The notes: generated from the sequence alone by a model not told the origin. Numbered from the stretch's first letter, positions 12,106 through 14,236 are shown. The stretch: DNA of 64,000 nt from an uncultured Chlamydiales bacterium (GCA_963826935.1 CAWGYH010000009.1:79922-143921), one strand, 5' to 3'. Numbers and translations are program-made.

Positions 12106-12211
12106 TATAAAATAGCAAATTCTTGTAATTTAGATATTATGCGCCATTACGCAACGAAACATTCCGGACTTGCCCGTGGTGTCAAATTTGGTACTGTTAC
12201 CAATATATATT

Positions 12212-12426
12212 AAGACGTCAGGAAAAATGCGTTTTTTTCCGACCGCAGGTCCTTCGGAGTGCGGCGATTCTTCGCCGCTTTTACTTGCGACCACGGACCT
12301 TTACTTCCTTACCGCCCAAGCTTACAAAACAGCTCTACATGAATCGGTAGAGGTGCTTTGTGAGCCTTAAGCGATCTTGCAACTAAGGTGTGTGCAAAAG
12401 TAAAAGCGGCGAAGAATCGCCGCAGT
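12212..12426. repeat. Repeat family A element, left part (interrupted by IS481)
   Basis: Arm 12222-12286 is an imperfect inverted repeat of 14144-14208; it carries GCGGCGA-TTCT-TCGCCGC, with an inverted copy at ~12395-12425. Confidence 0.85.
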
Positions 12427-14046
12427 GCAAAGGTCCGAGTAGGCACATCCTTTACACTTTAGGGAAGGCACATCATTTACACTTTCAGGTATAATATCTT
12501 TTTTAATAAAAGGATGTTCATGGCATGGAAGGAAGTACAGGTTTTGGAACAAAGAAAATTATTTATTAAGCTATATCTTGAAGATAAATTAGATATGGCT
12601 ACGCTTTGTAATCAATTTGGGATTAGCAGGCCAAGTGGTTATAAATGGGTAGAAAGATATGAGAAAGAAGGGTTCGAAGGGTTGGCTGATAGGAGCAGAG
12701 CTCCTATAAATCAGGCGCTAGCAATCGATCCTGTTCTTGTAGAAGAAATCTTGAGCTTAAAATTAGAATGGCCTGAATGGGGCCCGAAAAAGTTGAGGGG
12801 TGATTTAGTTGCCAGGAACCCAACAATAATATGGCCTTCTACCAAAACTATAGGACACATCTTAGCAAGAAACGGTTTTATACGTGCTCGGAAACTTCGG
12901 AAACGTTTTCCCGTAAAAACAGATCCACTATCTCATGCCACCGAATTTAATAGAGTTTGGTCTGTGGATTTTAAAGGCTGGTGGCTTACAAAAGATGGGC
13001 ACAAATGTGAACCACTGACACTTGTAGATAATTTTAGCCGTTTTTTACTGCGCTGTATAAAGCTAAATAAAAATGACGGAGATCATGTCTGGGCTATTCT
13101 AGAGGCAACATTTCGTGAATATGGGTTACCCGATTATATGCGAAATGATAATGGACCTCCTTTTGCAACATCGGGTGTGGGAAGGCTTTCAAGGCTTTCT
13201 ATAAACCTTATTAAGGCAGGGGTAATACCTGAATGGATAGATCCAGGCAATCCCCAGCAAAATGGCCGACATGAAAGAATGCATGGCACGCTGCAGCGAG
13301 AGGGTGTTTTTCCTGAATTAGATTTAGTGGATCAACAAAAGGAATTAGCTAAATTTCAGAATTATTACAACTTTAGAAGGCCTCATGAAGCATTAGGTCA
13401 AGTGACCCCAGGAAGCATCTACAGTCCATCTTTGAGAATTTGGAACGGGTGCCTGAAGGCACCCGAATATGCCGATGAATTTAGAGTGGGGAGGGTAAGG
13501 AGCTGCGGAAAGATGCCTTGGAAAGGTGGTGATGTATATATAGGAAGAGTATTAGCTGAAGAATTAGTAGGGTTATTAGAAACAGAAGAAGGGCTGAAGA
13601 TGTATTTTGGACCTGTATTTCTGGGGACAATCAGACACAAAAACGAGTTGGAAGTCCTTAGACGGCCTGGAAGAATTAGGAGAAAAATACCGGTAAAAAA
13701 GGTGTAAAAAGCAGGACAACAAAGCACTGATAGAAAAAATAGACGGGCAGTGATAAAATATTAGGCACAGAAAACAGGTTGCTTCCGAAACTGATCGATA
13801 CGTGACGTTAGACGGATGTAAGCTGAGGGATAAATTGGGGGCTCTGCCCCCAAACCCCGGACAGAAAACAGGTTACTTCCTCTACTTCACTCAAACGATC
13901 AAAAACCGGATATAAACTTGATATGTTAGGGAAAATCAGTATACTATTATTTATATTTAAACAATTTATCATGCCATAGGCACCGATAAAAAGTGTAAAT
14001 GATGTGCCTTCCCTAAAGTGTAAACGATGTGAGTTCCGGACTTGCA
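12426..14046 (+). mobile_element. IS481-family insertion sequence
   Basis: 42-bp inverted repeats with one mismatch at 12444-12485 and 13990-14031, each with two CACATCNTTTACACTTT sub-repeats; outer ends (TGCAA...TTGCA) are approximate. Confidence 0.85.
12520..13707 (+). CDS. IS481-family transposase (DDE integrase core)
   Basis: MAWKE...FGISRPSGYKWVERY HTH; DDE residues in WSVDFKG, RNDNGPPF and NGRHERMH; intact frame. Confidence 0.93.
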   Translation: MAWKEVQVLEQRKLFIKLYLEDKLDMATLCNQFGISRPSGYKWVERYEKEGFEGLADRSRAPINQALAIDPVLVEEILSLKLEWPEWGPKKLRGDLVARNPTIIWPSTKTIGHILARNGFIRARKLRKRFPVKTDPLSHATEFNRVWSVDFKGWWLTKDGHKCEPLTLVDNFSRFLLRCIKLNKNDGDHVWAILEATFREYGLPDYMRNDNGPPFATSGVGRLSRLSINLIKAGVIPEWIDPGNPQQNGRHERMHGTLQREGVFPELDLVDQQKELAKFQNYYNFRRPHEALGQVTPGSIYSPSLRIWNGCLKAPEYADEFRVGRVRSCGKMPWKGGDVYIGRVLAEELVGLLETEEGLKMYFGPVFLGTIRHKNELEVLRRPGRIRRKIPVKKV

Positions 14047-14055
14047 CAACTTACT

Positions 14056-14236
14056 TTACCGCCCAAGCTTACAAAACAGCTCTACATGAATCGGTAGAGT
14101 GCTTTGTGAGCCTTAAGCGATCTTGCAACTAAGGTGTGTGCAAAAGTAAAAGCGGCGAAGAATCGCCGCAGTCCAAAGACCTACGGTCGAAAAAAAACGC
14201 ATTTTTTCACATCCTCTACGGATGACGAAACGTCTT
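14056..14236. repeat. Repeat family A element, right part
   Basis: 14056-14172 is a direct repeat of 12309-12426 (one 1-nt indel); ends with the right arm 14144-14208 and ACGTCTT at 14230-14236. Confidence 0.85.

Follow-up and report, generated by a model that had tools for sequence, protein, structure and literature searches.

An IS481-like insertion sequence between two direct copies of part of its palindromic target repeat in an uncultured Chlamydiales bacterium

In the genome of an uncultured Chlamydiales bacterium, an IS481-like insertion sequence (IS) sits inside a palindromic repeat, family A, and is flanked on both sides by the same part of that repeat. We studied the locus in a stretch of 64,000 nucleotides, here called the window, which is C9:79922-143921 of a 3.71-Mb assembly in 14 contigs (genome label G000). 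Positions without a contig name are positions in the window. Judged by its flanks, the IS has its left end at one preferred target site of the repeat (hot spot 2) and its right end at another (hot spot 1) of the same repeat copy. We think there is about an even chance that this arrangement goes back to one aberrant transposition, uncoupled at its two ends, that hit a single family A element.

The duplicated target around the insertion sequence

An earlier note on this DNA described a direct repeat of 118/117 bp on the two sides of the IS. The repeat is real. Positions 12309-12352 are identical to 14056-14099 (44/44), and a second block, offset by one base from the first, matches at 79 of 80 positions (12353-12432 and 14099-14178). 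The 65-bp family A arms that were said to bound the block are real as well, and form inverted repeats between 12252-12286 and 14144-14178 (94%) and between 12223-12254 and 14175-14206 (91%). The length of the duplication, however, had to be revised. Because the 14 bp between the IS and the exact repeat (14042-14055) align with 12285-12308 (TTGC GACCAC...TTACT), the full duplication is best read as 12285-12431 (147 bp) on the left and 14042-14177 (136 bp) on the right. The score of this gapped alignment is matched by 0.12% of shuffles (p ~0.001). On the left the duplicate directly adjoins the IS, whereas on the right three small gaps have to be allowed before the first 14 bp match. In the right copy, the 20 bp after the TTGC of hot spot 1 have shrunk to 10 via three small deletions.

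Read along the plus strand, the block begins with the left arm of the family A element (12219..12288), which holds the GC palindrome hpL (GCGGCGATTCTTCGCCGC, 12261-12278) and then TTTTACTTGC. In this arm, hot spot 1 is represented by TTGC (12285-12288), immediately 5' of GACCAC and in the same register as in the IS copy on C12 and the solo IS end at C4:61803 described below. The left copy of the duplicated target (12285..12431) runs from hot spot 1 through the loop and the second palindrome, hpR (12406-12423), to AGTGCAAA. The right copy (14042..14177) starts with TTGC ACAACTTACT (14042-14055), a degraded form of 12285-12308. Its remainder (14056-14177) is nearly identical to 12309-12431 and includes hpR once more (14152-14169). 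What is left of the right arm (GACCTACGGTCGAAAAAAAACGCATTTTTTCACA, 14178..14211) occurs a single time.

The IS between the two copies (12432..14041, plus strand) is 1,610 bp long and reads GGTCCGAG...GAGTTCCGGAC. That it lies between the direct repeats had been seen correctly, and only its limits (about 12426-14046) had to be moved to the positions where homology among four full copies stops. Its terminal inverted repeats of 42 bp (12444-12485 and 13990-14031) are 98% complementary, and each contains two ~20-bp repeats (CACATCnTTTACACTTT) spaced 25 bp. A single open reading frame (ORF) without frameshift (12514..13707, plus strand) encodes an intact transposase of 397 amino acids. The protein carries the Pfam domains rve, rve_3, HTH_32, HTH_28 and LZ_Tnp_IS481, the last with a score of 29 bits (Pfam cut-off 22.2). 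Its best NCBIfam match is IS481 (NF033577; 191.9 bits, E 1.7e-56, profile positions 2-282 of 284), which is below the curated cut-off of 224; IS3 scores 91.4 bits. By these profile matches the element is an IS481-like DDE insertion sequence. Target duplications in the IS481 family are 4-15 bp long according to ISfinder.

The window copy has no such short duplication. The 4-mers that flank it are CAAA on the left and TTGC on the right. BLAST of the IS against the genome found no IS sequence at the locus outside the duplicated block. The IS thus stands between direct copies of host DNA, with neither a short target duplication nor outer IS copies, an arrangement written here as Dup-IS-Dup (duplication, IS, duplication).

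Target choice and the origin of the two repeat halves

The family A repeat is palindromic, measures ~247 bp and has arms of ~65 bp. A BLAST search of the genome with its reconstructed empty form gives 136 loci, of which 78 are at least 200 bp long. The copies are 80-91% identical to the window copy and add up to 23.9 kb, or 0.64% of the genome. An 18-bp GC palindrome (GCGGCGAnnnnTCGCCGC) lies in each arm and hence occurs twice per element. Counting both strands, each element offers four equivalent sites of two kinds: hot spot 1 (TTTTACTY^), 8-9 nt 3' of the palindrome, and hot spot 2 (ACTCCAAAGAC^), 10-11 nt 3' of it.

We gathered the copies of the IS by BLAST of the window IS against the 3.71-Mb genome. 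There are seven independent loci. Four are full copies, namely the window copy and those at C12:29628-31237, C5:743394-745003 and C4:105203-106812. The others are a 308-bp left fragment (C5:756423-756730), a 52-bp solo right end (C4:61803-61854) and an internally deleted mini-IS of 131 bp (C2:101703-101833). All seven lie inside family A, at two positions and in a fixed orientation, which bears out the suggestion in the earlier note that this IS targets family A.

Hot spot 1 is occupied on C12 (...GCCGCTTTTACTTC before the IS, CTTC GACCAC after it), at C5:745003 in the mirror arm (...GCCGCTTTAGATT before, GATT TTGCAC after) and at C4:61803, where the solo end is followed by CTCC GACCAC. Hot spot 2 is occupied at C4:106812 (...CGCCGCACTCCAAAGAC before, AGAC CTGCGG after), at C5:756423, with a left flank identical to that of C4:106812, and at C2:101703 in the mirror arm. 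The left end of the IS faces the hairpin at every junction of this genome where the left flank is present, and also in both copies of a related IS in a congener (G003). Clean target duplications of 4 bp (CTTC, GATT and AGAC) flank the three other full copies, and 4 bp is the normal length for this IS. It had been thought possible that other copies would turn up at random sites with short duplications. The short duplications are there; the random sites are not. From the junctions, the IS can be said to select its target via a small GC-rich hairpin, with the left, transposase-proximal end joined 7-11 nt 3' of it.

The window copy has one end at each kind of site. Its left flank ends ...GCGGCGAAGAATCGCCGC AGTGCAAA, which places the left joint at hot spot 2, three bases before the canonical position. 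On the right, the flank starts TTGC ACAACTTACT TTACCGCCC, and the left half of this element has TTTTAC TTGC GACCACGGACCTTTACTTCC TTACCGCCC at its hot spot 1; the right joint has the exact register of hot spot 1.

Both joints belong to one repeat copy. Along their 123 well-conserved bp the two halves of the duplication differ by 1 indel and 1 substitution (98.4% identity); the best other copy in the genome reaches 94.3%, and the median of all pairs is 80%. They have six non-consensus bases in common, and one of these (G in CGCCGCAGT) is found in 0 of 87 other copies. Since the halves are mutually nearest and carry a variant that is absent from 87 other copies, their sequences identify a single repeat copy as the source of both. 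For the same reasons, recombination of two different repeat loci is ruled out.

The earlier note had proposed recombination between two IS copies inserted at different positions in two copies of a repetitive extragenic palindromic (REP) element. The two different junction positions, which such recombination requires, stand; the two REP copies do not. Recombination between IS copies is further weakened by the IS itself. The other three full copies hardly differ among themselves and share 97.6% identity with the window copy, from which they are separated by 43 differing alignment columns scattered over the whole length and by 7 amino acid differences in the transposase. The window IS is the sole copy of its own lineage in the genome. 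A chimera with the canonical lineage is likewise ruled out by the spread of the 43 differences along the whole element. The alternative that had been offered, an unusual duplication mechanism, fits better and has a published precedent (PMC11708052).

The duplication could also have come first. A tandem duplication by exchange between GC palindromes, followed by normal insertion, would give a left flank of hairpin plus TTTTACTTGC, but the actual flank is hairpin plus AGTGCAAA. It is also disfavoured by the genome-wide BLAST with the rebuilt empty element, which found no partial tandem duplication at any other family A locus.

Several loci of the IS have features of their own. The mini-IS, a single copy, consists of the left 54 bp and the right 87 bp fused by an internal deletion; it lies at hot spot 2 of an inverted family A element, between imperfect 4-mers (AAGT and AGAC). 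The 308-bp left fragment is cut off by a stretch of repeated AAACGGGGTCAG motifs. At the solo right end, unrelated AT-rich DNA has taken the place of everything to the left, the left arm of the repeat included. With these two truncated copies and the Dup-IS-Dup in the window, 3 of the 7 IS loci in family A are rearranged. A fragment at C2:284355 is 87.5% identical to the window IS.

The ends of the IS differ between copies. Canonical ends in the other copies read GGTCCGGAG...GAGTTCCGGACC, and relatives in other genomes begin with GGTCC and finish with GGACC or GAACC. The window copy reads GGTCCGAG...GAGTTCCGGAC and then T: compared with the other copies and the congeners, its left repeat lacks one G and its terminal right C is lost or changed. 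Because its right terminus is damaged, the window IS is probably immobile now.

The motif CTCC(N0-3)GACC is present in both hot spots (for example at 14170-14181 and in the C12 flank) and resembles the IS termini, that is, the reverse complement of the left end CTCCGGACC and the right end TTCCGGACC. Mimicry of the IS ends may therefore contribute to target choice in addition to the hairpin.

Family A itself looks like a recently mobile miniature inverted-repeat transposable element (MITE) rather than a static REP, because several copies at separate loci (for example C5:520118, C8:296, C2:1100384 and C5:178227) are 100% identical over the central 123 bp and the element ends read TGTG...CACA. 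A second, related repeat family (TGGGTAGCCACACCGTAGGTTTTGGAGTGCGACGATCATTCGTCGC...) has its core in common with family A. Mobilisation by a REP-associated tyrosine transposase (RAYT) was considered and rejected. The genome has 13 matches to the Y1 domain of the IS200/IS605/RAYT type (for example C5:245713-246057 and C3:204415-204756), none of which adjoins family A or lies within 2.5 kb of it.

The 12-mer TTCCGGACTTGC at 12162..12173 (plus strand), which the earlier note recognised as a match to the right end of the IS, has exactly two occurrences in the 3.7-Mb genome, at 12162 and 14034. Eight of its bases correspond to the right tip of the IS and the next four to the beginning of the right flank, so that the occurrence at 14034 spans the junction, while the one at 12162 lies ~60 bp upstream of the repeat element. 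No similarity extends beyond the 12-mer on either side (0 of 13 upstream bases match, read by eye), and the surrounding 146 bp are unique in the genome; as an IS remnant it is therefore rejected. About 0.15 such common 12-mers are expected between block and flanks, and the match is probably due to chance. In Pseudomonas fluorescens SBW25, 4 bp adjoining an IS moved along with it (Ngan et al.; PMC11708052), and by analogy a link of the 12-mer to such co-travel is possible.

How the two joints may have been made

In a normal insertion by a DDE transposase, the right 3' end joins the top strand, the left 3' end joins the bottom strand 4 bp further right, and gap repair leads to the duplication. 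For the window copy we suggest that strand transfer of the right IS end took place at hot spot 1, into the top strand, and that the left end was transferred to the bottom strand 147 bp further downstream, at hot spot 2. A single duplex may have received both ends, or the two joints may have been spread over two sister duplexes that trail a replication fork. Each half-reaction would keep the normal polarity for its site, and the sole change would be a distance of 147 bp instead of 4 bp. Repair synthesis over two 147-nt gaps would then give rise to the Dup-IS-Dup. The small deletions cluster next to both junctions, where fill-in synthesis would meet the 5' ends of the IS.

Several observations speak against this account. 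From the junctions, a single uncoupled event looks no different from an allelic crossover. At hot spot 2 the left junction misses the canonical position by 3 nt. The three deletions in the first 20 bp of the right copy call for an extra assumption, either error-prone processing of the joint or later decay. Among relatives of the IS, the five other insertions examined are all ordinary (two in G003 and three in G249), which makes the long duplication rare. Finally, a relative with 71% identity in another congener (G002, loci L019-L023) has no hairpin at any of its five left junctions.

The crossover just mentioned would be a homologous exchange inside the IS. Its partners would be two alleles of one and the same repeat copy that carry this IS lineage in a single orientation, the first at hot spot 2 and the second at hot spot 1. 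The chromosome with the second allele would be a sister or would come from another cell by recombination, and the product would combine the left side of the first allele with the right side of the second. Such a crossover predicts the exact junctions that we see as well as the absent 4-bp duplication. Double hits on one repeat are possible, as both hot spots are reused in one orientation, and the two differences between the halves could be allelic. However, a lineage that is now single-copy would have had to hit one and the same of ~100 repeat copies twice, independently, and the clustering of deletions at both junctions would be left without a reason. Had both insertions been on one chromosome, the result would be a deletion or an array of three IS instead. 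We regard the crossover as rather unlikely.

Exact-match scans with a flank 31-mer in metagenome and genome collections found no empty site and no other allele of the locus, nor did protein-based scans. The congeners are ~72% identical in the neighbouring gene, and so their intergenic regions are not comparable. The locus is a convergent intergenic region, and no effect on the neighbouring genes is evident.

Two alleles could also have been brought together in the computer. In a sample with two strains that differ in the hot spot occupied by the IS (1 in one strain, 2 in the other), the assembler could have crossed from one strain to the other. The genome is 91.6% complete with 3% contamination and resembles a metagenome bin, and the 1.6% difference between the halves is within the range of strain variation. 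Yet the 3.7 Mb are in only 14 contigs, two of them above 1 Mb (1.6 and 1.1 Mb), and several near-identical IS copies of 1.6 kb are resolved. Few large contigs and resolved IS copies point to long reads, which would span the 1.9-kb block. The chimera would still require two independent insertions in one repeat copy, and we think it quite improbable.

Another explanation does without a choice of sites by the transposase. The palindrome would stall replication and break, and the IS would be joined to these pre-existing breaks during sister repair. Long palindromes are prone to breakage, and the rebuilt empty family A element folds as a long rod (-82 kcal/mol, z = -14). Small sequence losses at both junctions would fit as well. 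Insertion into a break is the model that Ngan et al. favour for a duplication of 60 kb (PMC11708052). Against it, both joints in the window are within 0-3 nt of normal transposase sites and have the right polarity, and random breaks in a 247-bp palindrome would seldom match both. We find capture at breaks improbable. Because both joints lie on preferred sites of the element with the correct polarity, the evidence points to the transposase, not to random breakage, as the maker of both.

Lastly, the IS might have brought part of its flank along. From a donor at hot spot 1 it would have been mobilised together with 136 bp of right-flank repeat, through a stretch of the right arm, CTCCAAAGACC, that resembles the IS end TTCCGGACC, and inserted at hot spot 2 of this repeat. 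The likeness of CTCC(N0-3)GACC in both hot spots to the IS ends CTCCGGACC and TTCCGGACC would suit this idea. It needs different donor and target repeats, though, and the halves are each other's closest relatives with a unique variant. Moreover, the right arm continues seamlessly past the duplication without an extra 4-bp duplication. The junction TTGCACAACTTACT occurs once in the genome and was not found at another locus. On the nearest-relative halves and the seamless arm we reject this scenario, which we find hardly credible.

Relatives, known systems and meaning

The 4-bp duplication is not confined to this genome. In the congener G003, both copies of an IS with 74% DNA identity are flanked by 4-bp duplications (TTGA and ATTT), with the left end 7 nt 3' of a GC hairpin in each case. 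One of these hairpins is REP-like and the other terminator-like. A 44%-identical relative from another family also has 4-bp duplications, without an obvious hairpin. The 4-bp duplication therefore appears general in the clade. Since the 71%-identical relative has no hairpin at its five left junctions and the 44%-identical one no obvious hairpin, hairpin homing is, as far as these junctions tell, lineage-specific. It seems to have been gained or lost within the genus.

The closest parallel is an IS481-family element in P. fluorescens SBW25 (pflu2158, pflu4347 and pflu5832; Ngan et al. 2024, mBio, PMC11708052). All its copies have a REP next to their 5' end and are flanked by a 4-bp duplication (PMC11708052). 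In the lab mutant SBW25-Dup-IS, a new IS copy lies between two copies of a 59,943-bp segment; the arrangement arose de novo and without a target duplication (PMC11708052). Ngan et al. call this duplication 'not readily explained' (PMC11708052).

The two elements are alike in several ways. Both have a DDE transposase encoded by a single ORF, ends with two ACATCnTTTACA repeats ~25 bp apart, and a 4-bp duplication. In both, a REP hairpin adjoins the left (5') end, which in SBW25 abuts the REP. Each also has one exceptional copy between direct copies of host DNA, without the 4-bp duplication and without outer IS copies. They differ in their transposases, which are ~35% identical (a fragmented comparison with an SBW25 sequence that was taken from a PDF and contains errors), and in their termini, TGTA...TACA in SBW25 and GGTCC...GGACC in the window element. 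Whereas the SBW25 duplication spans 59,943 bp in a lab mutant, that of the window spans 147 bp and is fixed in a natural genome. The right joint of the mutant lies in unique coding sequence; in the window both joints are on preferred target sites. By these comparisons the window locus is a second example of Dup-IS-Dup, small, natural and resolved at the sequence level, in a distant relative of the same IS subgroup.

Other systems share single features with the window locus. IS1397 and ISKpn1 (IS3 family) and other REP-specific IS insert only into one extragenic palindrome family, at fixed positions. IS1397 and ISKpn1 insert in the loop of the palindromic unit, whereas the window IS inserts 7-11 nt 3' of the stem and has a transposase of a different family. 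Half-site integration by retroviral integrases and alternative transposition of maize Ac/Ds (with ends on sister chromatids or reversed ends) join element ends at separated target positions. The outcome is a duplication or deletion of host DNA with the element at the junction. These viral and eukaryotic systems serve as a lead only and imply no homology; we know of no experimental link between this route and IS481-like elements. In IS-flanked tandem amplification, for example of the arn operon by IS1, tandem copies arise by unequal sister exchange (PMC11253626). As in the window, an IS lies between two direct copies of a segment, but that route starts with two flanking IS copies and ends with three, and the locus in the window has no outer IS copies.

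Apart from the duplication, the window shows ordinary homing of an IS to a repeat family. With the duplication, we tentatively put forward a rule for the ACATCnTTTACA-ended IS481-like subgroup, which we consider possible but not probable: the transposase would dock the left end at the foot of a hairpin first, and the second strand transfer could then take place elsewhere, on the same or on the sister duplex. If true, this would be a recA-independent route, catalysed by the transposase, by which tandem duplications of whatever length could form with an IS where the copies meet. Both the 147-bp case in the window and the 60-kb Dup-IS-Dup in SBW25 would be accounted for. A target of 247 bp with two hot spots 147 bp apart suggests itself as a simple test system.

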